DNA of 64,000 bases from Ignavibacteria bacterium (GTDB taxonomy: Bacteria > Bacteroidota > Ignavibacteria > UBA10030 > F1-140-MAGs086). The notes below the pieces were generated by a model that did no database searches, was not told the origin of the DNA, and saw only the letters and a list, made by a program, of their open reading frames with translations. The position numbers and the translations under genes are program-made. Within the stretch, counting starts at the first letter, position 1; each line of letters starts with the position of its first letter. Shown piece after piece: positions 9,700 through 63,208 of this stretch. Location: the NCBI GenBank assembly GCA_016873775.1, contig VGWC01000003.1, positions 2,486-66,485 of the forward strand. Reading direction: 5' to 3'.

Positions 9700-12600
9700 G
9701 TTTCAAGTTACGAGTTGCGAGTTGCGAGTTACGAATGACCAATGACAAATTACAGATAACTGTTATCTGTTATTGGTTGTTTGTTATTTTGGCATCTTTA
9801 AAAACTAAAAGTTTATCATTTAACATCAGCGATAATTTGCGCAATCTACGGGAAACAGTCTCCCGCAGATTACGCAGATGTTCGCGGAAATTTTTTTTTG
9901 GAGTGTTCATTAGTAATATTTTTTTACTGCTTCTTTTCATTTTTAACAATCGGGCAAACAAACGAGCAAACAATATTTTGCTCTATGCTCTATGCTCTTT
10001 GCTTTTACTTTCATCCTCTAATCTCTATTCTCAATTCGACGATTTCTATCATCCCGAACTCGAATGGAAAACAATTGAAACAAAACATTTTTTCGTTCAT
10101 TATCATACGGGAACAGAACGAACTGCAAAAACCATTGCAAAAATCGCAGAAGAGATTTATGTTCCCATTACGTCGCTCTACCATCACGAACCCGACCAAA
10201 AAATTTCTTTTGTAGTAAAAGACTTCGATGATTATGCAAATGGCGCCGCTTATTTTTATGATAACAAAATAGAAATCTGGGCAACATCGCTTGATTTTGA
10301 TTTACGCGGTTCGCATAATTGGCTGCGCAATGTTGTAACGCACGAGTTCACGCATATCATTCAAATTCAAACGGCGATGAAGTTCGGAAGAAAAGTTCCG
10401 GCGTTTTATTTTCAATGGCTCGGTTACGAAGAAGAACGCCGCAACGATGTGTTGTACGGTTTTCCGAATGTGATTGCATCGTATCCGATTTCGGGATTTA
10501 TTGTGCCGAGTTGGTTTGCAGAAGGAGTTGCGCAATATAATCGTCCCGAACTTTCGTATGATAAATGGGATGCGCATCGCGATATGATTTTGCGAATGTA
10601 TGCTCTCGATAGCAATATGCTTACGTGGAATGAAATGTCGGTGTTCGGAAAAACGAGTTTGGGAAACGAATCATCGTACAATGCAGGATTTAATTTCGTG
10701 CGATACATCAGCGAGAAGTACGGGCAAGATGTTGTAGAAAGAATTTCTCGCTCGCTTTCGAAATTTTCGACAATTACGATTGACAAAGCGATTGAAGATG
10801 CAACGGGAAAAAATGGGGAAGAAGTGTATAATGAATGGAAACAACATTTACAATCTTCATACGGTGAACGAACAGAAGCACTCCGTCAACAGTTGGTGGA
10901 AGGAAAAATTATTACCGATGTCGGTTTTGGAAATTTCTATCCACAATTTTCTCCTGATGGTGGAATGCTCGCGTACATTTCCAACAAAGAAGCAGATTAT
11001 TTTGGTTTGTCATCGTTCTATCTTTACGATGTCGATAAGAAGGAAGAAAAATTATTAGTCAGCGGAGTTCGTTCAAACTTTTCATGGTTTCCCGATGGAA
11101 AGAAAATTATTTACTCGAAAACAACTTCTGATAATAAACATTGGTCGAAGCAGCATGATTTATATGTGTACGATATTGAGAAGGAAGATGAAACACGTTT
11201 CTCGTACGGTTGGCGAGCAAATTCTCCGTCTGTTTCTCCCGATGGAAAAATGATTGCGTTTGTTGCAGGAAGTGATGGAACAATAAATTTATACACAAGT
11301 GATAGCGACGGAAAAAATTTTAAACGTAGAACAAATTATTCCAACGGTGAACAAGTGTATAATCCCAAATGGTCTCCCGATGGAAAAAAAATTCTTTTCG
11401 ATTATTCAATTAAAGATGGAAGAGATGTTGCGGTGTTGAACGTTGAAAATGATTCCCTCGAGTTTTTGTTTGCAACAAGTTTTGATGAACGCAATGCTGT
11501 GTTTTCTCCCGATGGTCATAAAATTATTTTTGCGTGCGATAAAACTGGAATTTTCAATTTGTATGAATACAATTTCGAAACAAAATCCACAACGCAATTG
11601 ACGAATGTTCTCGGCGGCGCATTTATGCCTTCGGTGAATGAAAAAAATCAACTTGCATTTGCTTCTTATACTTCCAGCGGATATAAAATTTCTTGGTTCG
11701 ATTCGTTGCAAAATATTTCTGCAGAAAATAATTCTTATGTGAAAGAAGAAAATAAATCATCATCGTTTCTTCTTGCATTAAAAGAAAAATCGGCGAACAT
11801 TGATTGGGAAAAAATTCGTTCATTTGATGATGCGAATTTATCGGAACCGAAATCGCGCACGTATAAAAATATTTTTACTTCAATGACGTTTTATCCTTTT
11901 TTCCGTTTCGATAATTACAGTGAAAAAGCGAGCGGAATAAGTTTGATAAAGCCGGGAGTGTATTTTGTTTCCAATGATGTGCTGGATAAATATGGATTGT
12001 TTGGCGGAGCGGCTATTAATACGCGATTGGAACGTGATTTGTTTTTCATTTTTGAGTATCGTGATAAAATTCCTCTCTTCTTTCAGTTGGGAATGGATCC
12101 AATTCTTTCGCTTGAGGCATACAACATTTCCCGTACAACAGAATTCACGGCGATACTTCGTCCCGATAATCCGATTCCGCTTGACTTGGATGTGTCGTTT
12201 AATCTTATTGAATTTGATGTTGTGCTGAAACAAAAATTATTTTCAGAAAATTTGGGTTGTGAATTGCGCTACACACATAGTAGATATGCGAGCGGAATTG
12301 AAACTTTCCTTTTTGACGATCCTGATGACGGCGTTTTTGACCCAATTTCTATTCCCGGTTCGCGAGAAGAATATTATGTTGGAAATGTTCTTTCGCTGCG
12401 ATGGGATTACAAAGCGATTGCACTTTCTCGGTTTATGGAAATTAATCCGAGCGGAAGAAAAATTTTTCTTCAATACGATTACGAATTTTCAAAATTCAAT
12501 CCAGAATATGTCATCGAAAAAGGCGAACTTGTACGTGTTTTTGAAGAGCCAAAATTTCAACGTGTCGAATTGAAGTGGAATGAGTACACATCACTTCCCG

Positions 12601-13076
12601 GTTGGAAACATACGTTAGCAACTTTGATTCGTGCAGGAAAAATTATCGGCGGAGTGCAAGATGATTTTTTCGATTTTTATCTTGGCGGTTTAGTCGGAAT
12701 GAAAGGATATCCGTATTATGCCATTGGTGGGAATAGCATTGCCGCTATTAACGCTACGTATCGCTTTCCAATGTGGGAGAATATGGATATTCGAGTGGCG
12801 CATTTGTATTTCGATAAACTCTATGGTGCTGTATTTTTTGATGCAGGAAATGCGTGGACAACAGGTTCTATCAAACAGCAAAAATTTCAAAGGGATATAG
12901 GAGGAGAACTTCGACTCGATGCATTTTCGTGGTATGCATTTCCGACTCGTATTTTTTTTACGGCGGCGTATGGTCTTGATGAATTTCAACGAATGACACG
13001 TAATAATAAACTTGTTACGTACGGAAAAGAGTGGCGGTTTTATTTCGGAATATTATTTGGTTTTGATTTTGACTAA
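9696..13076 (+). CDS. Outer-membrane protein: HExxH gluzincin-like domain + PD40 (TolB-like) beta-propeller repeats + C-terminal Omp85/surface-antigen-like barrel. True start uncertain.
   Basis: HEFTH at 10341-10355 with downstream FAEGVAQY. PD40-like FSPDGGMLAYIS, SVSPDGKMIAFVAGSDG, KWSPDGKKILF, FSPDGHKIIFACDKTG. Barrel-like C-terminus ending FGILFGFDFD. ATG 9696 overlaps the upstream stop (ATGA), but the first ~95 codons are repeat-encoded. Alternative starts are GTG 9903 and TTG 9978. Confidence 0.7.
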   Translation: MSFKLRVASCELRMTNDKLQITVICYWLFVILASLKTKSLSFNISDNLRNLRETVSRRLRRCSRKFFFGVFISNIFLLLLFIFNNRANKRANNILLYALCSLLLLSSSNLYSQFDDFYHPELEWKTIETKHFFVHYHTGTERTAKTIAKIAEEIYVPITSLYHHEPDQKISFVVKDFDDYANGAAYFYDNKIEIWATSLDFDLRGSHNWLRNVVTHEFTHIIQIQTAMKFGRKVPAFYFQWLGYEEERRNDVLYGFPNVIASYPISGFIVPSWFAEGVAQYNRPELSYDKWDAHRDMILRMYALDSNMLTWNEMSVFGKTSLGNESSYNAGFNFVRYISEKYGQDVVERISRSLSKFSTITIDKAIEDATGKNGEEVYNEWKQHLQSSYGERTEALRQQLVEGKIITDVGFGNFYPQFSPDGGMLAYISNKEADYFGLSSFYLYDVDKKEEKLLVSGVRSNFSWFPDGKKIIYSKTTSDNKHWSKQHDLYVYDIEKEDETRFSYGWRANSPSVSPDGKMIAFVAGSDGTINLYTSDSDGKNFKRRTNYSNGEQVYNPKWSPDGKKILFDYSIKDGRDVAVLNVENDSLEFLFATSFDERNAVFSPDGHKIIFACDKTGIFNLYEYNFETKSTTQLTNVLGGAFMPSVNEKNQLAFASYTSSGYKISWFDSLQNISAENNSYVKEENKSSSFLLALKEKSANIDWEKIRSFDDANLSEPKSRTYKNIFTSMTFYPFFRFDNYSEKASGISLIKPGVYFVSNDVLDKYGLFGGAAINTRLERDLFFIFEYRDKIPLFFQLGMDPILSLEAYNISRTTEFTAILRPDNPIPLDLDVSFNLIEFDVVLKQKLFSENLGCELRYTHSRYASGIETFLFDDPDDGVFDPISIPGSREEYYVGNVLSLRWDYKAIALSRFMEINPSGRKIFLQYDYEFSKFNPEYVIEKGELVRVFEEPKFQRVELKWNEYTSLPGWKHTLATLIRAGKIIGGVQDDFFDFYLGGLVGMKGYPYYAIGGNSIAAINATYRFPMWENMDIRVAHLYFDKLYGAVFFDAGNAWTTGSIKQQKFQRDIGGELRLDAFSWYAFPTRIFFTAAYGLDEFQRMTRNNKLVTYGKEWRFYFGILFGFDFD
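9700..9790. repeat. Heptamer-phased drifting repeat array (13 units)
   Basis: gtttcaa|gttacga|gttgcga|gttgcga|gttacga|atgacca|atgacaa|attacag|ataactg|ttatctg|ttattgg|ttgtttg|ttatttt. Contains the palindrome cagataac-t-gttatctg. Confidence 0.8.
9838..9876. repeat. Imperfect palindromic element
   Basis: tgcgcaatctacggga (9838-9853) pairs with tcccgcagattacgca (9861-9876), 14/16 bp, 7-nt loop. Confidence 0.6.
9980..10049. repeat. Heptamer-phased drifting repeat array (10 units), encodes the putative signal peptide of the downstream protein
   Basis: gctctat|gctctat|gctcttt|gctttta|ctttcat|cctctaa|tctctat|tctcaat|tcgacga|tttctat. Confidence 0.75.
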
Positions 13077-13089
13077 GAAAAAAATAGCA

Positions 13090-14160: not shown

Positions 14161-14706
14161 ATACTTAGTTCATCATTACATTCATTTCGTTCGCAGAACA
14201 AATTAAGCGGCAAAGTTCTTGTTCTTAATCAGAATTATGAACCGGCAAGCGTCTGCAATATTCAAAAAGCGATTATCTTACTTTTTTTGAAAAAAGCAGA
14301 ACTCATCGAAGCATTCGATGGAAAACTTGTTCGTTCAGTGAGCAACGCTATGCCGTATCCGAGTATTGTTCGCCTTTCTTCATACGTGCATATTCCGTAC
14401 AAAAAAATAATTCTTTCGCGTAAAAATATTCTTCGTCGAGACGGACATCGTTGTCAATATTGCGGTAGATTGGAAATGACTGTTACGCTTGACCACGTAA
14501 TTCCAAAAGCGCGCGGCGGAGAAGAAACATGGGAAAATCTTGTGTGCGCGTGTGTTTCGTGCAATAACAAAAAAGGCGACCGCACTCCAGAGGAAGCGCA
14601 AATGCCATTAGGAAGAAAACCGTTACGTCCCAATCACGTTACGTTTATTCGGCATTTTATGGGAAACTTTGATGACCGATGGAAACCATATTTGTTTATG
14701 CATTGA
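14161..14706 (+). CDS. HNH endonuclease (small McrA-like family). Start codon unresolved.
   Basis: GKVLVLNQNYEPASVCNIQKAIILLFLKKAELI N-terminal block plus HNH/zinc-ribbon block CQYCG...LDHVIPKARGG...NLVCACVSCNNKKG. The frame is open from 14095 with no in-frame ATG/GTG/TTG upstream of the conserved block (the first, TTG 14287, lies inside it). 14161 is an ATA. Confidence 0.6.
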   Translation: MLSSSLHSFRSQNKLSGKVLVLNQNYEPASVCNIQKAIILLFLKKAELIEAFDGKLVRSVSNAMPYPSIVRLSSYVHIPYKKIILSRKNILRRDGHRCQYCGRLEMTVTLDHVIPKARGGEETWENLVCACVSCNNKKGDRTPEEAQMPLGRKPLRPNHVTFIRHFMGNFDDRWKPYLFMH

Positions 14707-15799: not shown

Positions 15800-15801
15800 C
15801 G

Positions 15802-35033: not shown

Positions 35034-35283
35034 TCTCACGCAAAGACGCAGAGTCGCAAAAGATGTTTTGTGAAAGATTTATGCTTGATGAAAATGTAAA
35101 ATTAGATTTTTAAGATAAAGTTTTTTAAAGCCGCTAATTTATAAAATTTCTTAGCGTAACTTTGCATTGACCTTTGCGAAACTCTGCGGTTAAATGAAAG
35201 TGTTTTTTTACCGCAAAGGAACACAGAGTTAGCGCAGAGTAACGCAAAATAATTTCTTTGCATTTTAGCGTCTTTGCGTGAGA
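35034..35283. mobile_element. MITE-like 250-bp non-coding element with perfect 16-bp terminal inverted repeats
   Basis: tctcacgcaaagacgc (35034-35049) and gcgtctttgcgtgaga (35268-35283). Internal ctgcggttaaa...ttaccgcaaag hairpin core. No ORF. Begins 3 nt after the polX stop and ends 20 nt before the next ATG. Confidence 0.6.
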
Positions 35284-36674: not shown

Positions 36675-36683
36675 AATAGTTAA

Positions 36684-36788
36684 GGACTCGAGGATTCAAG
36701 CGGTCAAGTGAATTTAAATTATATTACTCGAATCCTCGACCACTTGAATCCTTGAACCCGAATCTTAAATCTAAATTCTAAAATCTAA
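36684..36788. repeat. Heptamer-phased, partly palindromic repeat array (15 units) filling the nth-bshB1 spacer
   Basis: ggactcg|aggattc|aagcggt|caagtga|atttaaa|ttatatt|actcgaa|tcctcga|ccacttg|aatcctt|gaacccg|aatctta|aatctaa|attctaa|aatctaa. ggattcaagcggtc pairs with gaccacttgaatcc. Confidence 0.75.
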
Positions 36789-36789
36789 A

Positions 36790-37524
36790 ATGGCAATTGA
36801 CGTACTCGCAATCGGCGCACATCCCGACGATATTGAATTTTCGTGCTGCGGAACGATTGCAAAATTAGTAAAGCAAAAAAAGAATGTCGGCATTCTCGAC
36901 TTAACGCAAGGAGAACTCGGAACGCGCGGTAATAAAAACATTCGCAATAGTGAAGCAACAAATGCGGGAAAAATTCTTGGCGTTGCATTTCGGGAAAACT
37001 TGAAACTCGCCGACGGAAGTTTCGAAGTGAATCAAAAAAATATTCTGAAAGTAATTTCTGTAATTCGCAAATATCGTCCGAAGATTTTGCTTATTCCTCC
37101 GTACCACGAGCGACATCCCGACCACGAACACGCACATCAGTTAGCGAAAGAATCGTGGTTTTATTCCGGCTTAAAAAATATTATCACAAAGGAAAATGGA
37201 AAAACTCAAGAACCATTTCGTCCCGATACATATTTTCAATTTATGTTGCGTTACGAATTTCAACCAACATTTATTGTTGATATTTCTGATGTGTATGAAA
37301 TTCGTGTGAAAGCGATTGAAGCGTTTGAATCACAAGTTCACAGCAAAACGTATAAATCGAACGAACCGCAAACTTTATTAAGCAAGCCAACGTTCAAAGA
37401 ACTATTGGAAATACGAGCAAAGTTTTATGGAAGTCAAATCGGTGTGAAGTATGGCGAACCATTTTATTATCATCAACCGCTTGGCGTTGATGATTTATTT
37501 TCACTGAAACTTTTTGTGGGGTAA
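36790..37524 (+). CDS. bshB1: Bacillithiol biosynthesis deacetylase BshB1 (PIG-L/LmbE family)
   Basis: VLAIGAHPDDIEFSCCGTIAK and DLTQGELGTRGN blocks. Confidence 0.75.
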   Translation: MAIDVLAIGAHPDDIEFSCCGTIAKLVKQKKNVGILDLTQGELGTRGNKNIRNSEATNAGKILGVAFRENLKLADGSFEVNQKNILKVISVIRKYRPKILLIPPYHERHPDHEHAHQLAKESWFYSGLKNIITKENGKTQEPFRPDTYFQFMLRYEFQPTFIVDISDVYEIRVKAIEAFESQVHSKTYKSNEPQTLLSKPTFKELLEIRAKFYGSQIGVKYGEPFYYHQPLGVDDLFSLKLFVG

Positions 37525-42421: not shown

Positions 42422-43591
42422 TTGAGTAAACGTTTAAAAGTTGTCGTAGTTGACCCATTGTGTCAAGGTCCTTATTACGATTACTATTTGTGTTCTGCGC
42501 TACAACGTGCAGGAATGGATGTAGAACTATGGACGCGTGAACCGAAATTTTTAAAAGATTATTTTTCGCATACTGCGTTTCGCGTTCGGAAACTAACAAG
42601 ATTTTCTCGAGCATTATTCGGCGAGTCGTCATTTGGAAAATTCTTCAAATACCTTGAGTTATTGACGATAGATTTTTTTTTCTACTTCATAAAATGTTTG
42701 CGGAGCGATGTTGTACATATTCAGTGGTTCTCTCCTCCTCCGATGTTGTATGTAGAGCGATATGTATATTCGCTCTTGAAAAATTTTGACATTCGACTTG
42801 TTTTTACGGCTCACAATGTATTTCCTCATTCAACACCGTATCAATTTAAAAAAGAACTGCAAAAGATTTATTCAACGTTTCATACCATAACGGTAATGAA
42901 TACGTATAGCAAAACGATATTGAGCAACGAATTTTCACTGGCAACGACAAACGTCGAAATCATTCCACACGGTCCAATTTTTCACGACTTTATACGACTT
43001 TCTCAAACACAATCAAAGCAGAAACTCAATATTGATGTACGGATGAACGTTATTCTGTTTCAGGGTTTTTTGCGTGCGTACAAAGGAATTGATTTTTTAT
43101 TGGAAACATTTTCTCGGTTTCTCCAATTGCATCCCAATTCGATACTCGTGCTTGCCGGAATGGGAAAATCGGATTATGTTCTGGATGTGAAAAAATCTAT
43201 TTCCCGTTTATCTATTCCTGAAACCAATATTCTTGCTCCGTTTCAGTACGTAACTCCGAATCAAATTCCTATATATTACGCCTCTGCAGATGTCGTTGTT
43301 TTTCCCTATGAGCATATTTATCAAAGCGGTGCGTTATTTACTGCGATGAGTTTTAAGAAAGCAGTAATTGCGACAGACGTTGGTGGATTTGCTGAACTGA
43401 TTGAAAATAATATCAATGGGAAATTAATAGAATATGGAAACACGGAACAATTTATTTCTGCATTGCAGGAAATAATTTTTTCAAAAGAAAAAAAAGAAAT
43501 GTTTGAAAAAAATGCTTTTCATAAAGTAACCAATGAATGTTCGTGGGAAATGATTGCAGAGAAAACAATCAACGTGTATCGTAAACCGTGA
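42422..43591 (+). CDS. Glycosyltransferase family 4
   Basis: C-terminal GT-B block ADVVVFPYEHIYQSGALFTAMSFKKAVIATDVGGFAELIENNINGKL. TTG start. Confidence 0.7.
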   Translation: MSKRLKVVVVDPLCQGPYYDYYLCSALQRAGMDVELWTREPKFLKDYFSHTAFRVRKLTRFSRALFGESSFGKFFKYLELLTIDFFFYFIKCLRSDVVHIQWFSPPPMLYVERYVYSLLKNFDIRLVFTAHNVFPHSTPYQFKKELQKIYSTFHTITVMNTYSKTILSNEFSLATTNVEIIPHGPIFHDFIRLSQTQSKQKLNIDVRMNVILFQGFLRAYKGIDFLLETFSRFLQLHPNSILVLAGMGKSDYVLDVKKSISRLSIPETNILAPFQYVTPNQIPIYYASADVVVFPYEHIYQSGALFTAMSFKKAVIATDVGGFAELIENNINGKLIEYGNTEQFISALQEIIFSKEKKEMFEKNAFHKVTNECSWEMIAEKTINVYRKP

Positions 43592-43649
43592 GTCGTGAGT
43601 CGTGAATCTCCAATTTCTACCCTCAACACTTGAACCTTCAAACATCGAA
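43587..43649. repeat. Heptamer-phased drifting array (9 units) spanning the GT4 stop and the uvrA start
   Basis: cgtgagt|cgtgagt|cgtgaat|ctccaat|ttctacc|ctcaaca|cttgaac|cttcaaa|catcgaa. TGA 43589-43591 and GTG 43602 both lie inside it. Confidence 0.75.
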
Positions 43650-46598
43650 CGCAATGAAACCATTCTCGTCAAAGGTGCGCGTGTTCATAACTTAAAAAAC
43701 ATAGATGTCGCAATTCCGCGCAATCAACTTACAGTAATTACAGGGCTTTCCGGTTCCGGAAAATCATCACTCGCGTTTGATACAATTTATGCAGAAGGAC
43801 AACGTCGTTATGTCGAAACGCTTTCCGCTTATGCGCGTCAATTTCTCGGAACATTTGAGCGACCTGATGTTGATGATATTCAAGGTTTATCACCATCAAT
43901 TGCGATTGAGCAAAAAATAGTTAGTCAGAACCCACGTTCAACTGTTGGAACTGTTACTGGGATTTACGATTTTCTTCGTGTGTTGTTTGCTCGCGCAGGG
44001 ACGCAATTTTGTGTGAACTGCGATAAAGAAGTTTCAAAACAAACGTCCGATGAAATTATTGATAAGTTGATGCAGCACAATGTAGGAACAAAATTGACAA
44101 TTCTTGCGCCTGTTGTTCGCGGAAGAAAAGGACATTATCGGGAATTGTTTGAAAGTTTGACGAAAAACGGATTTGCACGTATTCGTGTTGACGGCGAAAT
44201 TCGTGAACTCGAAAAAGTTTTACAAGTTGACCGATACAAAATTCATAACATCGAAGTTGTGATTGATAGAATTGTCATGAAATACGATATTCGTTCTCGT
44301 ATCGCTGATGCAGTTGAACTTGCATTACGAATCGGCGAAGGGATACTCTTTGCAGAAGTTCACGGCCTCGATATGCTGTTCTCGAAACTGCTTTCGTGTG
44401 CAACGTGTGGAAAAAGTTACGAAGAACCTGCCCCGAATACATTTTCGTTTAATTCACCGTACGGCGCATGTGCTTCGTGCGATGGACTTGGGGAGCATAA
44501 GGATTTTGATGAACGGTTGATTATTCCAAACGTCAAACGTTCTATCAATGAAGGTGGAATTGCTCCATTCGGAAAGCCGCGCTCAACGTGGATTTTCAGT
44601 CAATTAAAAGCGGTGGTTGCCCATTATGGTTTCACTTTCGATACGCCGTTGCATAAAATATTGAGTAAGTGCCGCGAAGTTGTATTCTTCGGCTCAAAAG
44701 AGAAGTTTGAAGTTCCGTACGTATTTTCTTCGGGAAGACAAGTAACATACTCACATCGCTTTGATGGAATTTTTACCATTCTCAAACATCAATATTCAAA
44801 TTCTCCAACTATTCGAATGCGCGAACGTGCTGAAGCGTATATGCAAACAACGATGTGCAGCGAATGTAACGGCGGACGGTTGAAAGGAGAAAGTCTTGCA
44901 ATAAAACTCGTTGATGTGAAAACTGAACAGCGATATACCATTGACGATGTTGTAAAAATTTCTCTCAGCGATGCAAGAGAATTATTGCGAACGCTTCAAC
45001 TTTCCAAGCGTAAAAAATTGATTGCAGAATTACTGTTGAAAGAAATCAATGAGCGTTTGGATTTTTTGCTCAATCTTGGTCTCAATTATCTTTCACTCGA
45101 TAGAACAGCTCGAACACTTTCCGGCGGTGAATCGCAGCGTATTCGTCTTGCAACGCAAATCGGAGCGCAATTGCGTGGAGTGCTCTATGTCCTCGATGAA
45201 CCGAGTATCGGTTTGCATCAACGCGACAATTTACAATTGATTCAATCGTTGCAATCATTGTGCGAATTAGGTAATACGATCATCGTAGTAGAACACGATA
45301 AAGAGATTATGGAACGCGCGGATTACATTATTGATTTAGGCCCCGGCGCGGGCGAACACGGAGGGAAAATTGTTGCACTCGGAAAACCAAATGCGTTACA
45401 AGTTGCGAGTTACGAGTTACAAGTTTCAAGTAGAGTGCAGAGAGTAGAAAGCAGAGAAACAACTTACGATGTACGATTTACAGATTTCGATTCTCCATCC
45501 ATAAACCACAAGCCACAAGCAACAAACCATCACTCTCTAACGTTTGAATATTTAGCAAACTCCCGACTCATTGACGTTCCAAAAGTGCGACGCAAAGGAA
45601 ACGGAAAATTTTTTTCGTTAAAAGAATGTTCTGGAAACAATTTGAAAAAGATTGATGTAAGATTTCCTTTGGGAACATTTATATGTGTAACAGGAGTCAG
45701 CGGTTCCGGAAAATCTACGCTTGTTTCCGAAACGTTGTTCAGAATTTTATCACGCGAGATTTATCAATCGAAAGAAGTTCCGCTTCCGTATAAAAAAGTT
45801 TCCGGAATTGATAACATTGATAAAGTAATTGAAATTGACCAATCGCCAATCGGAAGAACGCCGCGCTCCAATCCTGCAACATACACGGGATTGTTCACAT
45901 TCATTCGCGATTTATTTGCTCAACTTCCCGAATCGAAAATTCGCGGATACAAACCCGGAAGGTTTAGTTTCAACGTGAAAGGTGGACGATGTGAAAACTG
46001 TGAAGGAGATGGCATTAAAAAAATTGAAATGAATTTTCTTCCTGATGTATATGTTACCTGTGAAGTCTGCAACGGCAAACGCTACAACAGAGAAACGCTC
46101 GAAGTTCTTTACAAAAGTAAATCCATCGCCGAAGTTCTGGAAATGACAGTGGAAGATGCGCTTGCGTTTTTCGATGAACATTTGCCGATGAAACGCAAAT
46201 TACAAACGCTCGACAATGTTGGACTTGGCTATATTCGTTTGGGACAGCAAGCAACAACACTTTCCGGCGGTGAAGCGCAACGTGTAAAACTTTCTTCCGA
46301 ACTTTCCAAAATCGGAACGGGAAAAACGTTGTACATTCTCGACGAACCAACAACGGGATTACACTTTGAAGATATTCGCGTTCTGCTTTCCGTTTTGAAT
46401 AAACTTGTGGATAAAGGAAACACGATTATCGTCATCGAACACAATCTCGATGTCATAAAAACCGCCGATTATATTATTGATTTAGGTCCCGAAGGAGGCA
46501 ATGGTGGAGGAAGAATTATAGCCAAAGGAACTCCCGAAGAAATTATAACTGTGAAAGAAAGTTATACGGGAAAGTTTTTGAAAGAGGAATTGAACTGA
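43602..46598 (+). CDS. uvrA: Excinuclease ABC subunit A
   Basis: GARVHNLKNIDV, two ABC ATPase modules (GLSGSGKSSL, GVSGSGKSTL, LSGGESQR, LSGGEAQR), zinc-finger cysteines. 998 aa including a repeat-encoded insert. Confidence 0.9.
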   Translation: MNLQFLPSTLEPSNIERNETILVKGARVHNLKNIDVAIPRNQLTVITGLSGSGKSSLAFDTIYAEGQRRYVETLSAYARQFLGTFERPDVDDIQGLSPSIAIEQKIVSQNPRSTVGTVTGIYDFLRVLFARAGTQFCVNCDKEVSKQTSDEIIDKLMQHNVGTKLTILAPVVRGRKGHYRELFESLTKNGFARIRVDGEIRELEKVLQVDRYKIHNIEVVIDRIVMKYDIRSRIADAVELALRIGEGILFAEVHGLDMLFSKLLSCATCGKSYEEPAPNTFSFNSPYGACASCDGLGEHKDFDERLIIPNVKRSINEGGIAPFGKPRSTWIFSQLKAVVAHYGFTFDTPLHKILSKCREVVFFGSKEKFEVPYVFSSGRQVTYSHRFDGIFTILKHQYSNSPTIRMRERAEAYMQTTMCSECNGGRLKGESLAIKLVDVKTEQRYTIDDVVKISLSDARELLRTLQLSKRKKLIAELLLKEINERLDFLLNLGLNYLSLDRTARTLSGGESQRIRLATQIGAQLRGVLYVLDEPSIGLHQRDNLQLIQSLQSLCELGNTIIVVEHDKEIMERADYIIDLGPGAGEHGGKIVALGKPNALQVASYELQVSSRVQRVESRETTYDVRFTDFDSPSINHKPQATNHHSLTFEYLANSRLIDVPKVRRKGNGKFFSLKECSGNNLKKIDVRFPLGTFICVTGVSGSGKSTLVSETLFRILSREIYQSKEVPLPYKKVSGIDNIDKVIEIDQSPIGRTPRSNPATYTGLFTFIRDLFAQLPESKIRGYKPGRFSFNVKGGRCENCEGDGIKKIEMNFLPDVYVTCEVCNGKRYNRETLEVLYKSKSIAEVLEMTVEDALAFFDEHLPMKRKLQTLDNVGLGYIRLGQQATTLSGGEAQRVKLSSELSKIGTGKTLYILDEPTTGLHFEDIRVLLSVLNKLVDKGNTIIVIEHNLDVIKTADYIIDLGPEGGNGGGRIIAKGTPEEIITVKESYTGKFLKEELN
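45395..45534. repeat. Heptamer-phased drifting array (~20 units) in frame inside uvrA
   Basis: gttacaa|gttgcga|gttacga|gttacaa|gtttcaa|gtagagt|gcagaga|gtagaaa|gcagaga|aacaact|tacgatg|tacgatt|tacagat|ttcgatt|ctccatc|cataaac|cacaagc|cacaagc|aacaaac|catcact. Confidence 0.8.
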
Positions 46599-47546: not shown

Positions 47547-47574
47547 AAAATCTAAAACCTAAAACCTAAAACCT
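47547..47574. repeat. Heptamer tandem array
   Basis: aaaatct|aaaacct|aaaacct|aaaacct. Confidence 0.8.
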
Positions 47575-47606
47575 ATTTCAACAATCAGAATTCCAATGAA
47601 AGCGAA

Positions 47607-50443: not shown

Positions 50444-51763
50444 TTATTCTGCAGAAAGGAATAATTTTTTTAGGGAATGGAAATCGCAAAGCGAAACTAC
50501 GTTCTTTTTTTCTTGTGGAAAAATGCGTTGTAATGATGGAGGAAGTGAAATTTTTTCCCCGATTGCTTTTTCAACCACTTCTGGAAATTTACCATAATGC
50601 GCTGTTGCGGCAACGATAAACTGCTGATTGCTGACTGCTAAATTTTTTGAACGTTTTCTTGCTGCGCAAACTCCAACAGCAGTATGCGGGTCGAGAATAT
50701 AATTCTTTCGCAGGTACGTTTCTCTGATTTCATTCAGTGTTTCTTCATCGGAAATCGCCATCGCATCAATATCGCTTTTCATTTTCTGAACATCATTTCC
50801 GTACAGAAATTGCATACGCGTTACATTGCTTGGATTTCCCACGTCCATTGCGTTGGAATATGTTTGAACAGATGAACGCGGCGAATATATTTCTGTAGAA
50901 AAATATTCGGGAACAACATTGTTTGCATTCGTTGCAGCAATACATCGAATTGGTAATCCCATATGTTTTGCATACAATGCTGCAGTCAAATTTCCGAGAT
51001 TTCCACTTGGAACAACAATATTAATATTCGCGTCAATCTGCGTAGAACGATGTGGCTTCTTGAATTGTGAATAAGCCCAAACAAAATACACAAGTTGCGG
51101 AATCAATCTTCCGAGATTAATCGAGTTTGCAGTTGTCATATTTTTTTTCACGACAAGTTCCAAATCTGCTAATGCTTGCTTCACGAGTTTCTGGCAATCA
51201 TCGAATGTTCCTTCCACTTCGATTGCATGAATGTTTTTGCCGAGCGTTGTGATTTGTTTTTCTTGTAACGGAGAAATTTTGCCCGATGGATATAAAACGT
51301 ACACAGTAATATTCGGAACGTTGTAAAATCCGTTTGCGACGGCACTTCCCGTATCACCCGACGTTGCAACTATGATAGTGATTTCTTTTTTTTCTTGTTG
51401 TAAAAAATACGAAAGCGCTTCTGCCATAAATCGCGCGCCGATATCTTTAAATGCGAGCGTTGGTCCGTGAAATAATTCGAGCAGAAACAAATGTTCTTCT
51501 AATTGTACAAGCGGAATTGGAAAATTTAACGCGCGAGAAATAATTCTTTGCAAATCGGTTTTTGGAATTTCATCAATAAATTTTGATATAATTTCAAAAC
51601 TGATTTCATGCAGAGAAAGATTTTCTAATTGAGAAAGCAAAGCAGGAGAGATGCGAGGTATATTTTCAGGAACAAACAAACCTCCATCGCTTGCAATGCC
51701 GGATAATAATGCATCACGAAATGATACCGATGGTGATTGTTTGTTTACACTAAGAAATTTCAC
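50444..51763 (-). CDS. thrC: Threonine synthase
   Basis: FHGPTLAFKDIGARFMA (PLP lysine block), TSGDTGSAVA. Downstream of thrA-thrB. Confidence 0.85.
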   Translation of the reverse strand: MKFLSVNKQSPSVSFRDALLSGIASDGGLFVPENIPRISPALLSQLENLSLHEISFEIISKFIDEIPKTDLQRIISRALNFPIPLVQLEEHLFLLELFHGPTLAFKDIGARFMAEALSYFLQQEKKEITIIVATSGDTGSAVANGFYNVPNITVYVLYPSGKISPLQEKQITTLGKNIHAIEVEGTFDDCQKLVKQALADLELVVKKNMTTANSINLGRLIPQLVYFVWAYSQFKKPHRSTQIDANINIVVPSGNLGNLTAALYAKHMGLPIRCIAATNANNVVPEYFSTEIYSPRSSVQTYSNAMDVGNPSNVTRMQFLYGNDVQKMKSDIDAMAISDEETLNEIRETYLRKNYILDPHTAVGVCAARKRSKNLAVSNQQFIVAATAHYGKFPEVVEKAIGEKISLPPSLQRIFPQEKKNVVSLCDFHSLKKLFLSAE

Positions 51764-55389: not shown

Positions 55390-55439
55390 AAAATATTCTA
55401 ATTTTAACTTTTGTAAATATAGTAATTTGTTCGTAGTCA

Positions 55440-55481
55440 GTAGTCAGAAATCAGTTGTCCGTAGTACGGAAAAGAGAAATT
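55440..55481. repeat. Heptamer-phased array in the thrA / polA divergent spacer
   Basis: ttcgtag|tcagtag|tcagaaa|tcagttg|tccgtag|tacggaa. Confidence 0.7.
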
Positions 55482-55565: not shown

Positions 55566-58541
55566 ATGGAAACTACACTTCCCAGATTATATTTACTCGA
55601 TGGAATGGCGATTGCTTATCGTTCGTATTATGCGTTCATTACCAATCCGCTCCGAACATCAAAAGGCGAAAACGTCAGCGCATTGTTTGGTTTTGCAAAT
55701 ACGTTATTCAAAATTTTAGATAGCGACAAACCGGAATATTTCGCCGTCGTGTTCGATACGAAAGAGCCGACGTTTCGTCATAAAATGTATGATGCATACA
55801 AAGCGACGCGACAAGAAATTCCAGAAGAACTTATTCCTCAACTCGACCAGTTGCGGGATTTGGTTCGCGCATTCAACATTTCCGTTCTCGAAATGCACGG
55901 TTACGAAGCCGATGATATTATGGGAACGCTTGCTCGCAAAGCGGAGAAAGAAAAAATTCTCACGTATCTTGTTACCGGCGATAAAGATTTTATGCAACTA
56001 ATTTCGCCGTTTATCAAAATGTTGAAGCCGGGAAATGCAAACGCTGAATGGGAAATTATTGATAATGCCCACGTGCTGGAAAAATTCGGCGTACCTCCTT
56101 CGCAGGTGATTGATGTGCTTGGTTTGATTGGCGATAAAGTGGACAATGTTCCCGGCATTCCCGGCGTTGGCGAGAAAACTGCGATTCCACTCGTGCAGCA
56201 ATTCGGCAGTATTGAAAACATTCTTACAAATATTGATAAAATTGAAAAAGCAGCGGTGAAAAAAAAATTTGAAGAACACAAAGCGCTTGCATTGCTTTCC
56301 AAAGAACTCGTAACGATTGATATCAATGTTCCTCTTGATGTAGATATTCACGAACTTAAAGCGAAAGAAAGAGATGTTGAACAACTTACAAAGTTGTTCA
56401 CGCAGTTTGAGTTTAAGAATCTTCTGAAAAAAGTTACGAGTAACGTGTTACGAATTACAAATGAGAAAATAGATAACTCAAAACTTGTAACTCGTAACTC
56501 GCAACTTGAAACAGACGAAGATATCTCTTTCGATGTTGCAAAATTTGAAAAGACGACTGATATTACTAATGATGAACATAAGTATCATTTAGTTACGACG
56601 GAAAAAGATTTTTTGAAATTGTGTGAGAAACTTTCCAAGGCAAAACAGTTTGTATTCGATATGGAAACAACTTCGGAAAATGCGTTGGATGCGGACGTTG
56701 TCGGCGTATCGTTTTGTATGAAAGAGAGGGAAGCGTATTACGTTGCGGTTGAGTTTGTTCCTTCAATTGAGAAAGATGGCGGAGAAGAAATACAAGATTT
56801 ATTTTCGACCAAGAAGAAAGTAGTTAGTAGTCAGAAGTCAGTAGATTCAAAATCGCCCACTCCACATCTCACATCTCAAATTACTATTGAGTCTGTGAAG
56901 AAATATCTCCAACCAGTTTTTGCAAACGAAAAGATTTTGAAGATTGCACAGAATGCAAAGTACGATGCGCATGTGTTGGCGAATTATGGGATTGTAACAA
57001 AGGGAGAAATTTTCGATACGATGATTGCGCATTTTGTTTTTCGGAATAACTCGCGGCACGGATTGGATTCGCTTGCGTTGGAATTTCTCAATTACAAAAT
57101 GATTTCGTTTGATGATTTGCTCGGAACGGGACGAGAGAAAAAAAAGATTTGGGAAATTCCGTTCGAAAACATTTGCGAATACTCGTGTGAAGATGCTGAT
57201 ATGACGATGCGATTGTATAATGTGTTGAAAGAAAAATTGAAGAATGAAAAAACCACTAATTCTGTCATTCCGAGCGAAGCGAGAAATCTCCTTACAGTTT
57301 GCAACAATGTTGATTTCCCACTCGTTTTTGTTCTTTCTGAAATGGAACGCGCGGGACAAAAACTCGATACAAAATTTTTGAGTGAGTTATCGAAAGAATT
57401 GGAACGCAATCTTAAAAACATCGAGCAAGACATTTACCAATTCGCCGGAGAAACGTTCAACATCAATTCGCCGAAACAATTGCAAGATATTTTATTTGTA
57501 AAACTCGGATTGAAATCGTCGCGGAAAACGAAAACAGGATTTTCTACGGCAGAAGATGTGTTGGAAGATTTGCGCAACGAACATCCGCTCATCGAAAAAC
57601 TTTTGGAACACCGTACAATGTACAAACTCAAGTCCACGTATGTTGATGCGTTGCCAAATCTCATCAATAAAAAAACGGGACGCGTGCACACTTCCTACAA
57701 TCAAGTTGTTGCCGCGACTGGAAGATTATCGAGCAGCGAACCGAATTTGCAAAACATTCCGATTCGTACAGAAGTCAGTCGTTCGATTCGGAAAGCGTTT
57801 ATTACGGATGACGGTTGGAGAATTCTTTCCGCAGATTATTCGCAAATCGAACTGCGCATTATGGCGGATATGAGCGGCGATGAGGGATTGCAAACAGCAT
57901 TTCGGAATGGAGAAGATATTCATAGAGCAACAGCGGAGAAATTATTTGCGAGTTCTTCGATTGATACTCGCGAACAACGACGGCGTGCTAAGGAAGTGAA
58001 TTTCGGGATTATGTATGGTATGGGACCGTTTGGCTTATCGCAGAGTTTGCAAATCCCACAGAATGAAGCGAAGGAGATTATTACGAAATACTTTGAGCGA
58101 TTTCCGAAAGTGAAACAGTTCATTGAGGATACGAAAGCATATTGTCGGCGCACGGGTTATGTAGAAACACTGCTCGGTCGGCGACGGTATCTTCCTGATA
58201 TTAATAGTAAGAATGGAAGTATTCGCTCGAATGCAGAACGACAAGCGATTAACGCGCCGATTCAGGGAACTGCGGCGGATATGATTAAGTTGGCGATGAT
58301 AAAAATCTATGAGAAAGTTGCGAGTTACGAGTCGCGAGTTACGAGTTATGAATCACGAATTACGAACCACGAGTTACGAATGTTGCTGCAAGTTCACGAC
58401 GAACTTGTTTTTGAAGTTGCGGAAAGCGTAGAGCATAGAGCAAAGAGTTTAATTTTGGATTGTATGAAAAATGCTTTGCCGCTTTCCGTTCCGGTGGAAG
58501 TGGAAATTGGAAGCGGGAAGAATTGGTTTGATGCGCATTGA
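55566..58541 (+). CDS. polA: DNA polymerase I
   Basis: 5'-nuclease (LYLLDGMAIAYRSYYA), 3'-5' exo (FDMETTS, QNAKYD), polymerase motifs (SADYSQIELRI, RRRAKEVNFGIMYG, LLQVHDELVFE). 991 aa including four repeat-encoded inserts. Confidence 0.9.
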   Translation: METTLPRLYLLDGMAIAYRSYYAFITNPLRTSKGENVSALFGFANTLFKILDSDKPEYFAVVFDTKEPTFRHKMYDAYKATRQEIPEELIPQLDQLRDLVRAFNISVLEMHGYEADDIMGTLARKAEKEKILTYLVTGDKDFMQLISPFIKMLKPGNANAEWEIIDNAHVLEKFGVPPSQVIDVLGLIGDKVDNVPGIPGVGEKTAIPLVQQFGSIENILTNIDKIEKAAVKKKFEEHKALALLSKELVTIDINVPLDVDIHELKAKERDVEQLTKLFTQFEFKNLLKKVTSNVLRITNEKIDNSKLVTRNSQLETDEDISFDVAKFEKTTDITNDEHKYHLVTTEKDFLKLCEKLSKAKQFVFDMETTSENALDADVVGVSFCMKEREAYYVAVEFVPSIEKDGGEEIQDLFSTKKKVVSSQKSVDSKSPTPHLTSQITIESVKKYLQPVFANEKILKIAQNAKYDAHVLANYGIVTKGEIFDTMIAHFVFRNNSRHGLDSLALEFLNYKMISFDDLLGTGREKKKIWEIPFENICEYSCEDADMTMRLYNVLKEKLKNEKTTNSVIPSEARNLLTVCNNVDFPLVFVLSEMERAGQKLDTKFLSELSKELERNLKNIEQDIYQFAGETFNINSPKQLQDILFVKLGLKSSRKTKTGFSTAEDVLEDLRNEHPLIEKLLEHRTMYKLKSTYVDALPNLINKKTGRVHTSYNQVVAATGRLSSSEPNLQNIPIRTEVSRSIRKAFITDDGWRILSADYSQIELRIMADMSGDEGLQTAFRNGEDIHRATAEKLFASSSIDTREQRRRAKEVNFGIMYGMGPFGLSQSLQIPQNEAKEIITKYFERFPKVKQFIEDTKAYCRRTGYVETLLGRRRYLPDINSKNGSIRSNAERQAINAPIQGTAADMIKLAMIKIYEKVASYESRVTSYESRITNHELRMLLQVHDELVFEVAESVEHRAKSLILDCMKNALPLSVPVEVEIGSGKNWFDAH
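56433..56516. repeat. Heptamer-phased palindromic array (12 units) in frame in the polA 5'-nuclease/exo linker
   Basis: gttacga|gtaacgt|gttacga|attacaa|atgagaa|aatagat|aactcaa|aacttgt|aactcgt|aactcgc|aacttga|aacagac. Arms 56431-56455 and 56483-56507 are 20/25 complementary. Confidence 0.8.
56820..56882. repeat. Heptamer-phased array (9 units) in frame in the polA 3'-5' exo domain
   Basis: gtagtta|gtagtca|gaagtca|gtagatt|caaaatc|gcccact|ccacatc|tcacatc|tcaaatt. Related to the 55440-55481 array. Confidence 0.75.
57264..57290. repeat. 'gtcattccgagcgaagcgagaaatctc' word in frame in polA (encodes VIPSEARNL)
   Basis: Shares gtcattccg...g(a/g)aatctc ends with the intergenic copy at 58601-58638, and gtcattcc with 22693-22766. 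Confidence 0.65.
58317..58379. repeat. Heptamer array (9 units) in frame in polA just before motif C
   Basis: gttgcga|gttacga|gtcgcga|gttacga|gttatga|atcacga|attacga|accacga|gttacga. Encodes the 7-aa periodic VASYESR VTSYESR ITNHELR. Confidence 0.85.
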
Positions 58542-58597
58542 TTTCATTTTACATTTTATATTGAACATTTTAGATTGATTATTTTCAAAATTCAAAA
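58542..58597. repeat. Heptamer-phased array starting at the first nt after the polA stop
   Basis: tttcatt|ttacatt|ttatatt|gaacatt|ttagatt|gattatt|ttcaaaa|ttcaaaa. Confidence 0.7.
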
Positions 58598-58600
58598 GCA

Positions 58601-58638
58601 GTCATTCCGAAACCACATTTATGTGGATGAGGAATCTC
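58601..58638. repeat. 'gtcattccga...gaggaatctc' hairpin-family element
   Basis: gtcattccgaaaccacatttatgtggatgaggaatctc with inner ccacat/atgtgg. Confidence 0.65.
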
Positions 58639-58689
58639 TTTTGAAGTTGTCGAGGTTGAAAAAAGATTTCACAACTCTTTAAGTATATT

Positions 58690-58795
58690 TTCGCCCGAAA
58701 ATTACTCCGCGTTACTCTGCGAAAAACTTTGAGCGACTTTGCGGTTAAACAACATTTGCATTTAACCGCGAAGTAACGCAAAGTCAAACACAAAG
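58690..58795. repeat. Partial relative of the 35034-35283 MITE-like element (core hairpin)
   Basis: ctttgcggttaaa (58737-58749) / tttaaccgcgaag (58761-58773). Shares the words actctgcgaaa, tgcggttaaa and gtaacgcaaa with the 35160-35250 core. Confidence 0.6.
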
Positions 58796-58864
58796 TTTCG
58801 CAATGACGATAGAGAAAAAAGATTTAATACTCTTGCACTATAAAGCAGAATATGCTTGAGTAAT

Positions 58865-60910: not shown

Positions 60911-60924
60911 CTTTTCTATTACTA

Positions 60925-60990
60925 TTAACTACGAATGACAAATTACTAATTACCAATGATAGTCATTAGTAATTTGTCATTGGTCATTTG
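60925..60990. repeat. Heptamer-phased palindromic element between tatC and the polyprenyl synthase gene
   Basis: Perfect 16-bp stem atgacaaattactaat (60935-60950) / attagtaatttgtcat (60965-60980). 60969-60988 is the exact reverse complement of 9734-9753. Confidence 0.8.
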
Positions 60991-61000
60991 TTGGTGTAAT

Positions 61001-61750: not shown

Positions 61751-61757
61751 TTGATTA

Positions 61758-61816
61758 GCCACGAATTTCACGAATTGACACTAATTATATTCGTGATAAT
61801 TCGTGCAATTAGTGGC
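61758..61816. repeat. Interleaved palindromic element (cacgaatt / cactaatt words)
   Basis: gccacgaatttcacgaattgacactaatt atat tcgtgataattcgtgcaattagtggc. cacgaatt pairs with aattcgtg, and cactaatt pairs with aattagtg. Confidence 0.65.
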
Positions 61817-61824
61817 AAAAATAA

Positions 61825-63111: not shown

Positions 63112-63120
63112 AAAATGGTT

Positions 63121-63208
63121 TGCGATATGAGATTTGGGATTTGAGTTTTGTTCCTCTTCCTCTTTTGGTATCCCGCAATGACGGGATGCTAAAAGAGGGA
63201 AGAAGAAA
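63121..63208. repeat. Heptamer-phased array running into a ~25-bp imperfect hairpin in the glyA 5' region
   Basis: tgcgata|tgagatt|tgggatt|tgagttt|tgttcct. Then ttcctcttcctcttttggtatcccg (63151-63175) pairs with cgggatgctaaaagagggaagaagaaa (63182-63208), loop caatga. Confidence 0.7.

Follow-up and report, generated by a model that had tools for sequence, protein, structure and literature searches.

The question raised by a 64,000-nucleotide stretch of DNA from an Ignavibacteria bacterium (contig VGWC01000003.1; the whole stretch is referred to as the window) is how short arrays of degenerate heptanucleotide units came to be scattered over its spacers and some of its conserved genes, among them polA and uvrA, and what kind of repeat they represent. 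The window is an ordinary chromosomal stretch of uncultured Ignavibacteria, and its closest PolA and UvrA proteins originate from metagenome-assembled genomes (MAGs) named Ignavibacteriales, Ignavibacteriota or Bacteroidota. An initial annotation of the sequence had described the arrays as a dispersed family of 7-nt-phased repeats whose motif changes stepwise from unit to unit. The follow-up analysis confirmed that they are genuine, dispersed and drifting period-7 tandem repeats.

Tandem structure was assessed by a strict scan of the 64-kb window, in which a 28-nt sliding window had to show at least 75% identity between position i and position i+k. Nine segments covering 449 nt were obtained at lag 7 and three segments at lag 14, and none was found at any other lag from 4 to 15. 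Dinucleotide-preserving shuffles (n=20) yielded a mean of 0.05 segments under the same scan. With looser settings, 21 segments totalling 1202 nt were returned at lag 7; each of the lags 5, 6 and 8-11 gave between 5 and 12, totalling 138-399 nt. Among the 49 rows reported by Tandem Repeats Finder (TRF), 21 were of period 7, five of period 14 and one of period 21; higher-order 14- and 21-nt periods thus accompany period 7, which is the sole short-period tandem structure of the window. All 13 intervals listed in the initial annotation overlap a lag-7 segment. Its stepwise drift was recovered as an increase of the mean Hamming distance within arrays from 2.4 between neighbouring units to 4.6-5.0 between units at least five positions apart. 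Furthermore, array units are 7 nt long, contiguous and degenerate, in agreement with its view that they represent neither clustered regularly interspaced short palindromic repeats (CRISPR; repeats of 24-48 nt with unique spacers of similar length) nor an ordinary perfect microsatellite. Its reading of unrelated blocks in one fixed register was abandoned as meaningless for a tandem repeat.

The arrays are also related to each other. As the proposed dispersed family would predict, the four longest inverted repeats of the whole 64 kb are array-to-array matches (listed at the end of Table 1). A search for three tandem GTTRCRA units with up to two mismatches gave 13 matches at four loci of the window, compared to 0 expected. 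Unit families recur accordingly, GTTRCRA being represented at four loci, ATGACNA/ATTACNA and AGWAGTC at three each and TGCTCTA at two.

Moreover, the arrays are not unique to the window, related ones being present in relatives. For this comparison, polA loci were taken from 80 species genomes and from closer Ignavibacteria found by protein search. Strict period-7 arrays reached a density of 0.14 per kb in the window, 0.18 per kb in L204 (80% PolA identity), 0.09 per kb in L207 (78%) and 0.13 per kb in L004 (63%), and of 0.22, 0.21, 0.04 and 0 per kb in L208, L209, L210 and L211, respectively. Seven of the eight Ignavibacteria loci therefore carry 0.04-0.22 strict arrays per kb, and the corresponding value for 79 polA loci of other phyla (1.33 Mb) is 0.005 per kb. 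No lag other than 7 produced a comparable signal in the Ignavibacteria loci.

Several arrays are translated in frame, namely those of uvrA and polA (three clear and one marginal in the latter) and one located in a signal peptide. An identical PolA of 991 aa is encoded in three other metagenome assemblies, whose contigs differ from the window by 0-7 substitutions and 0 indels, and the in-frame arrays are therefore not assembly errors. Comparison with solved structures and orthologues showed that the PolA and UvrA inserts sit in linkers or loops. The uvrA array encodes an extra linker of 40 aa connecting the end of ATP-binding cassette (ABC) module I (GPGAGEHGGKIV) to module II; query residues 596-641 (46 residues) face just six residues in the solved UvrA 9gxk. 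Across Ignavibacteria homologues this inter-module linker ranges from 26 to 69 aa, with 26 aa in 16 homologues and approximately 40 aa in 64. The 40-aa form holds two heptapeptides of the type LKLRNDK LKISGNG, which the 26-aa form lacks, and the linker of UvrA P0123 (81% identity) reads LRMKNGE LGMRNEE LRITNDE. Judged from these alignments, the 14-residue two-heptapeptide insert of most Ignavibacteria (homologues P0121-P0240) looks like an ancient, now fixed heptamer-array insert. In L204, the uvrA site encodes 21 aa, half the length found in the window, and is composed of ATGACSA/ATTACCA units as opposed to the GTTRCRA and other blocks of the window.

In PolA, the array sites are indel hot spots across Ignavibacteria. 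Site 1 is an insertion relative to PolA of other groups, and the site 4 insert faces a 14-aa gap in the alignment with Taq polymerase (1bgx). Site 2 varies from 0 to approximately 90 aa and shows heptapeptide repeats, such as PQSSILN in P0029, and approximately 30 aa of SEVRGQR repeats occupy site 4 in P0106. The site 4 array of the window is read as VASYESR VTSYESR ITNHELR; L204 and L207 have shorter arrays there, and L004, like most Ignavibacteria, has none. Arrays of L204 occupy the polA and uvrA sites known from the window but differ from it in copy number and units. At site 1, L204 possesses a GTTACGA hairpin as in the window (approximately 83% in the alignment; fold z -4.65), in which paired changes (ACAA:UUGU to ACGA:CUCG) are observed. 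L207 carries a direct AGWAGTC array at this site, matching window site 2 at 91% over 35 nt. The heptamers of L207 and L004 at sites 1 and 2 differ from those of the window, and L207 also has a different array at site 4. Array sites thus persist across relatives (63-80% PolA identity) while units and lengths turn over. Since the PolA and UvrA sites can be aligned, birth, expansion, unit turnover and exchange of in-frame arrays become datable against protein divergence, which is impossible with intergenic arrays. Moreover, non-triplet DNA repeats can evidently become permanent parts of essential enzymes, site 4 being located one residue from the catalytic motif C strand of DNA polymerase I.

Ignavibacteria without the site 4 heptamer array show 8-nt tandem duplications in the same pre-motif-C loop of polA. 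In L210 (12640-12700) these are two copies of AAGGGATG, and in L211 GATCAGGC, GATCAGGG and AAGCAGGC were observed. This loop seems to be generally prone to short tandem duplication.

Heptapeptide repeats such as SEVRGQR, PQSSILN and LRMKNGE/LRITNDE, which occur in PolA or UvrA of several Ignavibacteria, would likewise be expected if selection at the protein level favoured heptad-repeat or disordered linkers and the non-coding copies were decayed gene fragments. This explanation is highly improbable. Within open reading frames (ORFs) the DNA period is 7 nt and not 21, and seven residues correspond to one heptamer read in three frames; the process therefore acts on DNA and not through selection for peptide repeats. 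In addition, the same heptamers form spacer arrays, are found on either strand and can include stops in every frame; the array between the glycosyltransferase gene and uvrA contains TGA in all three.

Variants are shared between distant arrays of the same genome. In the window, the 3' arm of polA site 1 and site 4, which are 1.8 kb apart, are 86% complementary and based on GTTACGA. The same two sites of L204 are 85% complementary and based on GTTTCGA, and L209 contains AGAGGTC at both sites 2 and 4. Of 27 heptamer classes with perfect duplication in seven Ignavibacteria loci, nine occur in at least two arrays, which is far above expectation among approximately 1170 rotation and strand classes. 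Distant arrays of one genome hence evolve in concert, and it follows from the shared variants that they exchange or seed sequence. By reading of the sequences, the array preceding glyA in the window and site 2 of L207 polA also have CAAATCCCAAATCTCA in common.

Another possibility, which we regard as fairly unlikely, is that Ignavibacteria possess, in place of plain local slippage, an active, sequence-family-specific process by which heptamer modules are copied from one locus to another. If so, copying might be performed by a polymerase activity that switches templates or by an enzyme so far unrecognised. It would repeatedly write the same heptamers into spacers and permissive loops of essential proteins, and would keep distant arrays concerted, including the complementary ones 1.8 kb apart in polA. 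Such a process would also constitute a standing source of protein linkers, for example the two-heptapeptide UvrA linker fixed in most of the class.

The distribution of GTTRCRA outside the lineage was evaluated as well. In a metagenome scan, three tandem copies were found on at least 120 contigs with GC contents of 31 to 69%, many of them as (GTTGCGA)n-spacer-(TCGCAAC)n hairpins. A universal GTTRCGA element was rejected, because in viral contigs permuted control heptamers form tandems about as often or more often (111 and 22 stretches for two controls vs 43 for GTTRCRA). The breadth seen in metagenomes reflects the general abundance of heptamer tandems. When all fetched loci were searched for composite A-to-C modules outside the lineage, just the selected core was found.

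The best account of these observations, to which we assign slightly better than even confidence, combines duplication and loss of 7-nt units, mutation, copying between arrays and selective retention in spacers and linkers. Arrays would grow and shrink at the DNA level by gain or loss of single 7-nt units or of 14- and 21-nt blocks, likely through replication slippage or template realignment, and loops of the size of one unit would escape mismatch repair, which is inefficient for loops of at least 4 nt (PMC4060949). Point mutation would then erode older units, so that similarity drops along the array and the motif appears to walk. Ectopic template switching or gene conversion may seed or exchange sequence between loci and thereby maintain a small genome-wide vocabulary (GTTRCGA, ATGACNA/ATTACNA, AGWAGTC, TGCTCTA, AAATCYC). 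Selection would act as a filter, with survivors confined to intergenic DNA and to linkers or loops at protein surfaces; in the latter, only lengths divisible by three and stop-free frames would persist, leaving low-complexity, heptapeptide-periodic inserts. A dedicated function would be unnecessary and the arrays could be neutral, and a few of them may have been co-opted as hairpins of untranslated regions (UTRs) or as unstructured leaders before start codons.

Several points weigh against this account. The choice of 7 over 5, 6 or 8 nt is left unexplained, and shared heptamer families at unlinked loci would not be expected from simple slippage. Copying between arrays is deduced from sequence patterns only, and the conserved polA hairpin with its paired changes could reflect structural selection or an element-encoded need instead of neutrality. 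The Ignavibacteria sample, approximately 180 kb, is centred on polA, itself a hot spot. Furthermore, no length polymorphism was detected between near-identical strains, with 0 indels in 12.7 kb at 99.94% identity between the window and L001-L003, and L204, L205 and L206 are identical without indels; the strains being nearly identical, this absence is uninformative and does not demonstrate ongoing slippage.

RNA folding separated the arrays into two groups. Significant hairpins were predicted for 4 of 16 arrays (z -4.1 to -5.7), all with the architecture (unit)n, loop, (complementary unit)n, and the other 12 are without inverted-repeat structure, so that the earlier statement that many arrays are imperfect palindromes did not hold. 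The hairpins are formed by the array at 9700-9790 (fold of 9695-9800: -31 kcal/mol, z -4.5), by polA site 1 (56425-56520: -23.8 kcal/mol, z -5.1), by the array at 60925-60993 (60915-61000: -25 kcal/mol, z -5.7; arms of 23 nt, 91% complementary) and by the array upstream of the PIG-L deacetylase gene (36675-36795: -29.5 kcal/mol). In the last case the hairpin part, 36675-36755, has a z of -4.1, and the direct part alone has a minimum free energy of 0 (z +1.6). Of eight non-hairpin arrays that were folded, five are less structured than shuffled sequences (z +1.6 to +1.9), and the remaining three cannot be told apart from these. The array starting at the polA stop codon (z +1.6) and that of the thrA/polA spacer (z +0.1) are unstructured, and the glyA leader folds with z -1.2.

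The strong hairpins bear on an alternative according to which the arrays are miniature non-autonomous mobile elements, comparable to miniature inverted-repeat transposable elements (MITEs), REPINs (built from repetitive extragenic palindromes, REP) or Rickettsia palindromic elements (RPEs). Whole modules would be inserted, also into genes, by a trans-acting enzyme encoded elsewhere in the genome, and the 7-nt period would belong to the element itself or to its recognition hairpin. The four hairpins, together with the retention of the polA site 1 hairpin and its paired changes in L204, would suit such elements, as would in-frame insertion of the kind known from RPEs. Multi-unit strings are also found at unlinked loci in both orientations: uvrA and polA site 1 share 25 identical nt, the arrays around 9735 and 60990 share 19, and the module of window polA site 2 reappears at site 1 of L207. 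Nevertheless, this origin is improbable. The arrays possess no defined termini, their lengths vary continuously, 12 of 16 have no inverted-repeat structure, and comparison of occupied and empty versions of polA site 4 revealed no target-site duplications. Orthologous arrays alter unit by unit in place, tandems of GTTRCRA do not stand out among those of permuted heptamers in viral contigs, and neither a transposase nor a protein resembling REP-associated tyrosine transposases (RAYTs) is encoded among the approximately 50 ORFs of the window.

The placement of the arrays relative to genes was then related to the compactness of the genome. Intergenic DNA amounts to 5.15 kb of 64 kb, with spacers of 2-373 nt. 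Arrays cover 7.1% of intergenic and 0.85% of coding bases and are thus 8.3-fold denser per base in intergenic DNA, even though 503 of the 869 array bases are coding. Nine of 44 spacers contain an array. Arrays do adjoin start and stop codons, as had been noted, because the spacers are short and an array fills much of its spacer; the apparent hugging of gene boundaries is largely a geometric consequence of the compact genome, and 35 spacers are devoid of arrays.

Three start codons are adjoined by arrays (36790, and on the minus strand 63111 and 47539), which is one of the observations in favour of a role as functional cis elements. The arrays would then serve as phased platforms for a protein binding single-stranded nucleic acids, or as structure-free leaders and stabilising hairpins tuning the expression of neighbouring genes. 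For the TAACTGA repeats discussed below, cold-shock-domain, S1 or CsrA-like proteins were proposed as binders (PMC4679880), and this precedent, the low structure of direct arrays (z +1.6 to +1.9) and a heptamer vocabulary common to several species, suggestive of sequence-specific constraint, point in the same direction. By reading of the fold, the hairpin at 9700-9790 also stays paired via G-U pairs, which is relevant in RNA only. We nonetheless give little credence to a cis function: the majority of array bases belong to coding sequence, at sites without a plausible regulatory role, most spacers do without an array, and close relatives carry unrelated heptamers at the same site. Moreover, Rfam 15 gave no match at gathering score across the whole window, and the array following the stop codon at 9699 has a separate canonical terminator downstream.

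This intrinsic terminator, located at 9826-9897, serves the gene of the T9SS-sorted FG-GAP protein and consists of an interrupted hairpin of 24 bp (-30.7 kcal/mol, z -5.8) with U9 downstream of it, and the array at 9700-9790 was rejected as terminator of the gene 6463-9699 on account of it. The hairpin arrays in general do not resemble intrinsic terminators, being AT-rich and, in one case, located inside polA.

Individual arrays range from 24 to 141 nt and are compiled in Table 1 together with the array-to-array matches. The array at 9700-9790 is identical over 19 nt to that at 60925-60993, which occupies 69 of the 90 nt of its spacer. The segments 50617-50640, 58422-58447 and 63207-63232 are weak, and each alone is within chance range. 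The first is possibly an in-frame member of the family, an AGAAGTC/AGTAGNC array being located at the equivalent position of L204 thrC (4736-4772). The second is unchanged in length relative to orthologues, and L204 and L210 show a comparable weak pattern. The array at 9977-10040 encodes ILLYALCSLLLLSSSNLYS, which on sequence grounds would be the hydrophobic core of a signal peptide, subject to the exact start codon; the PD40/peptidase-MA identity of this ORF was obtained from Pfam. The mechanically called ORF, 9696-13076, starts within the preceding heptamer array and overlaps the upstream stop codon, which illustrates how ORF calls in this genome can be inflated by repeat arrays. The true start is probably GTG 9903 or later. 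In annotation, it should be considered that a low-complexity insert or an over-long ORF start in an Ignavibacteria gene can derive from repeats.

Table 1. Heptamer arrays of the window (strand in brackets) and the longest inverted repeats connecting them; T9SS, type IX secretion system.
Feature	Position	Location	Units	Support
Array	9700-9790 (+)	Spacer 3' of gene for T9SS-sorted FG-GAP protein (stop 9699)	GTTTCAA, GTTACGA, GTTGCGA x2, GTTACGA, ATGACCA, ATGACAA, ATTACAG, then inverted arm	TRF 9698-9734, period 7; lag-7 segment 9695-9789
Array	9977-10040 (+)	In frame, N-terminal hydrophobic signal-peptide region of PD40/peptidase-MA protein	TGCTCTA x2, TGCTCTT, TGCTTTT ... CTCTATT	TRF 9979-10003 and 10016-10037, period 7; lag-7 segment
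Array	36684-36795 (+)	Upstream of PIG-L deacetylase gene, reaching its ATG (36790)	GAATCC/GGATTC-type hairpin (36684-36755), then direct AATCTTA, AAATCTA, AATTCTA, AAATCTA	TRF 36761-36791, period 7
Array	43578-43610 (+)	Glycosyltransferase stop (43591) to uvrA GTG start (43602)	(CGTGAGT)3-type	TRF 43587-43605, 100% matches; lag-7 segment
Array, ~20 units	45395-45535 (+)	In frame in uvrA	Four blocks: GTTRCRA x5, GTAGAGT/GCAGAGA x2, TACGATK x4, CACAAGC-type x5	TRF 45395, 45429 (period 14), 45506; translation
Array	47547-47577 (.)	67-nt spacer, DUF2200 gene to upstream minus-strand gene	(AAAACCT)4	TRF 47547-47575, 95% matches; lag-7 segment
Weak array	50617-50640 (-)	Inside thrC	ACTGCTG, three units	TRF score 33; membership uncertain
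Array	55433-55465 (.)	Divergent thrA/polA spacer	TAGTCAG x2, AAATCAG, TTGTCCG	TRF 55433-55465; loose lag-7 scan
polA site 1 array	56433-56516 (+)	In frame, linker between 5'-nuclease and 3'-5' exonuclease domains	(GTTACGA)n, loop, (TCGTAAC)n	Hairpin fold
polA site 2 array	56815-56882 (+)	In frame, 3'-5' exonuclease domain loop after EAYYVAV	AGTAGTT, AGTAGTC, AGAAGTC, AGTAGAT ... CACATCT x2	TRF 56819-56844, 56863-56878
polA site 4 array	58316-58382 (+)	In frame, palm loop just before motif C (LLQVHDE)	GTTGCGA, GTTACGA, GTCGCGA, GTTACGA, GTTATGA, ATCACGA, ATTACGA, ACCACGA, GTTACGA	TRF 58316-58379, periods 7 and 21
Weak array	58422-58447 (+)	Inside polA	AGCATAG x2, AGCAAAG	TRF score 32; membership uncertain
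Array, period 7/14	58542-58580 (+)	Begins at polA stop codon	CATTTTA-type	TRF 58545-58576, 58551-58578
Hairpin array	60925-60993 (.)	Spacer, tatC to polyprenyl synthetase gene	ATGACAA, ATTACTA, ATTACCA, loop, inverted copy	TRF 60960-60991
Array	63119-63152 (-)	Directly upstream of start codon of glyA (serine hydroxymethyltransferase)	mRNA sense: AAAACTC, AAATCCC, AAATCTC, ATATCGC, AAACCAT	TRF 63119-63150, periods 7 and 14
Inverted repeat	9731-9788 vs 60934-60991			58 nt, 78%
Inverted repeat	45395-45431 vs 56476-56512	uvrA vs polA site 1		37 nt, 92%
Inverted repeat	56473-56507 vs 58315-58349	polA site 1 vs polA site 4		35 nt, 86%
Inverted repeat	9971-10005 vs 58423-58457			35 nt, 80%

Genes of the window encode functions in secretion and transport (gingipain-like C25 peptidase, PorV, T9SS-sorted proteins, exbBD/tonB, tatC), in replication and repair (scpAB, dnaG, PolX-PHP polymerase, uvrA, polA) and in metabolism and translation (trpS, thrABC, glyA). 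Positions 1066-9699 represent a type IX secretion neighbourhood comprising the C25 peptidase (1359 aa, with propeptide and FlgD-Ig domain), PorV nearby and the FG-GAP protein of 1078 aa with a Por_Secre_tail sorting domain. A stand-alone HNH endonuclease gene (139 aa, 14287-14706) is located between a DUF5683 gene and trpS, separated from them by spacers of 270 nt and 100 nt. The family-X DNA polymerase with PHP domain (PolX) is encoded at 33280-35031, next to an HhH-GPD glycosylase (36033-36674). Family-X polymerases are prone to slippage, which would make PolX a hypothetical candidate for repeat generation. In the spacer between the PolX and liaF-like genes, a 27-nt inverted repeat (35034-35060 / 35257-35283; TCTCACGCAAAGACGCAGAGTCGCAAA / TTTGCATTTTAGCGTCTTTGCGTGAGA; 81% complementary, 196 nt apart) may represent a small element or a regulatory structure. 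At 58690-58810, dense inverted and 10-nt direct repeats were observed (TTACTCCGCG/TTACTCTGCG; GCGGTTAAA...TTTAACCGC; z -3.7). This repeat nest coincides with the ends of three independent metagenome assemblies of the strain (58695-58701) and is probably a multi-copy element that breaks assemblies.

A second, non-heptamer palindromic element with the core GTCATTCCGAGCGAAG...GAGGAATCTC occurs at 57262-57290 and 58598-58640 of the window and at 11690-11760 and 5153-5167 of L204. Its half-copy in window polA (57262-57290, site 3) is in frame, is read VIPSEARN and forms a 13-aa insert. The full copy in L204 lies in frame in polA as a hairpin of -41 kcal/mol (z -6.6) and adds approximately 50 aa, and the copy just downstream of window polA also forms a hairpin (z -3.3).

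RPEs are elements of 100-150 nt with a defined consensus and no internal 7-nt period, inserted in frame at permissive surface sites. The analogy drawn to them in the initial annotation applies to the presence of short repeats, some of them palindromic, in frame in conserved protein genes. It does not extend to the remaining features, since the window arrays are mostly non-palindromic and have neither a fixed length (24-141 nt) nor common ends, and membership in an RPE-like class was rejected on these grounds. Within this lineage, RPEs have a closer counterpart in the separate GTCATTCCGAGCGAAG palindrome at polA site 3. As to REP/REPIN sequences, no RAYT or other transposase was found in the 64 kb analyzed, and most arrays are not palindromes. 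Borg tandem repeats are reported to evolve fast and to create disordered protein regions (PMC9879509). They share with the window arrays the addition of low-complexity peptide segments to proteins by tandem DNA repeats; Borg units in ORFs are reported to be multiples of three, perfect and recent, whereas the window arrays are built of 7-nt units, old and eroded.

The short tandemly repeated repetitive (STRR) sequences of heterocystous cyanobacteria (Calothrix, Nostoc, Anabaena) comprise several unit families, are dispersed and mostly intergenic, and their function is not known. The initial annotation named them as the closest analogue, and rightly so. Both consist of units of exactly 7 nt joined head to tail in tandem, fall into several unit families that are spread over many unlinked loci of the genome (here, of 64 kb of it) and prefer non-coding DNA, which in the window applies to per-base density; heptanucleotide tandem repeats were reported in Calothrix and Nostoc (PMC4692102). 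Differences concern the units of the window, which are AT-rich, strongly degenerate and rarely perfect copies, the large share in frame in conserved proteins, and the host phylum, as the closest proteins are from MAGs named Ignavibacteriales, Ignavibacteriota or Bacteroidota and T9SS genes are present. STRR sequences were originally defined for heterocystous cyanobacteria, to which this host does not belong, and the window arrays are therefore not STRR sequences in the strict sense but of the same kind. GGGAATC repeats of Xanthomonas are intergenic, sometimes arranged as convergent inverted pairs able to form hairpins (Rehm 2015, PMC4692102), and are kept between the same genes in related species while length and sequence vary extensively (PMC4692102). 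Intergenic heptamer arrays, inverted pairs and positional conservation with variation are thus shared with these repeats and with GGGGAYT of Nostoc, but their units are G-rich and quadruplex-forming, which those of the window are not.

Arrays of TAACTGA and of mixed heptamers were described from Beggiatoaceae, Cyanobacteria and five Bacteroidetes (MacGregor 2015, PMC4679880); they adjoin start codons, show indels in 7-nt steps between strains and are occasionally in frame (PMC4679880). The earlier remark that no description was known for a T9SS-bearing genome of the Fibrobacteres-Chlorobi-Bacteroidetes (FCB) group is contradicted by this publication. Both sets of arrays adjoin start and stop codons, mix related heptamers, give in-frame heptapeptide repeats (in the published case also within an ORF resembling RNA polymerase beta') and are found in the FCB group. 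The arrays of the window are, however, more degenerate, their hot spots in polA and uvrA are conserved across the whole class, and the commonest unit corresponds on the opposite strand to TAACTCG/CAACTCG, which agrees with TAACTGA at 5 of 7 positions. Two tandem TAACTGA units with up to two mismatches gave 0 matches in the window, and membership in the TAACTGA family was rejected.

Heptamer simple sequence repeats are over-represented in many bacteria, for which polymerase footprint and slippage were proposed (Mrazek 2007, as cited in PMC4692102). Across 7006 surveyed genomes, tandem heptamers outnumbered all other intergenic repeats, and the authors saw 'no clear clue' to what these do (PMC6344855); the preference of prokaryotic genomes for the prime-number period of 7 nt has been open since STRR sequences were described and was restated in 2018 in these words (PMC6344855). 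A literature search on heptamer or tandem repeats in Ignavibacteria found no relevant description. Each single feature of the arrays has a precedent, including occurrence in the FCB group, and Ignavibacteria are a new lineage for a known, mechanistically unexplained kind of repeat.

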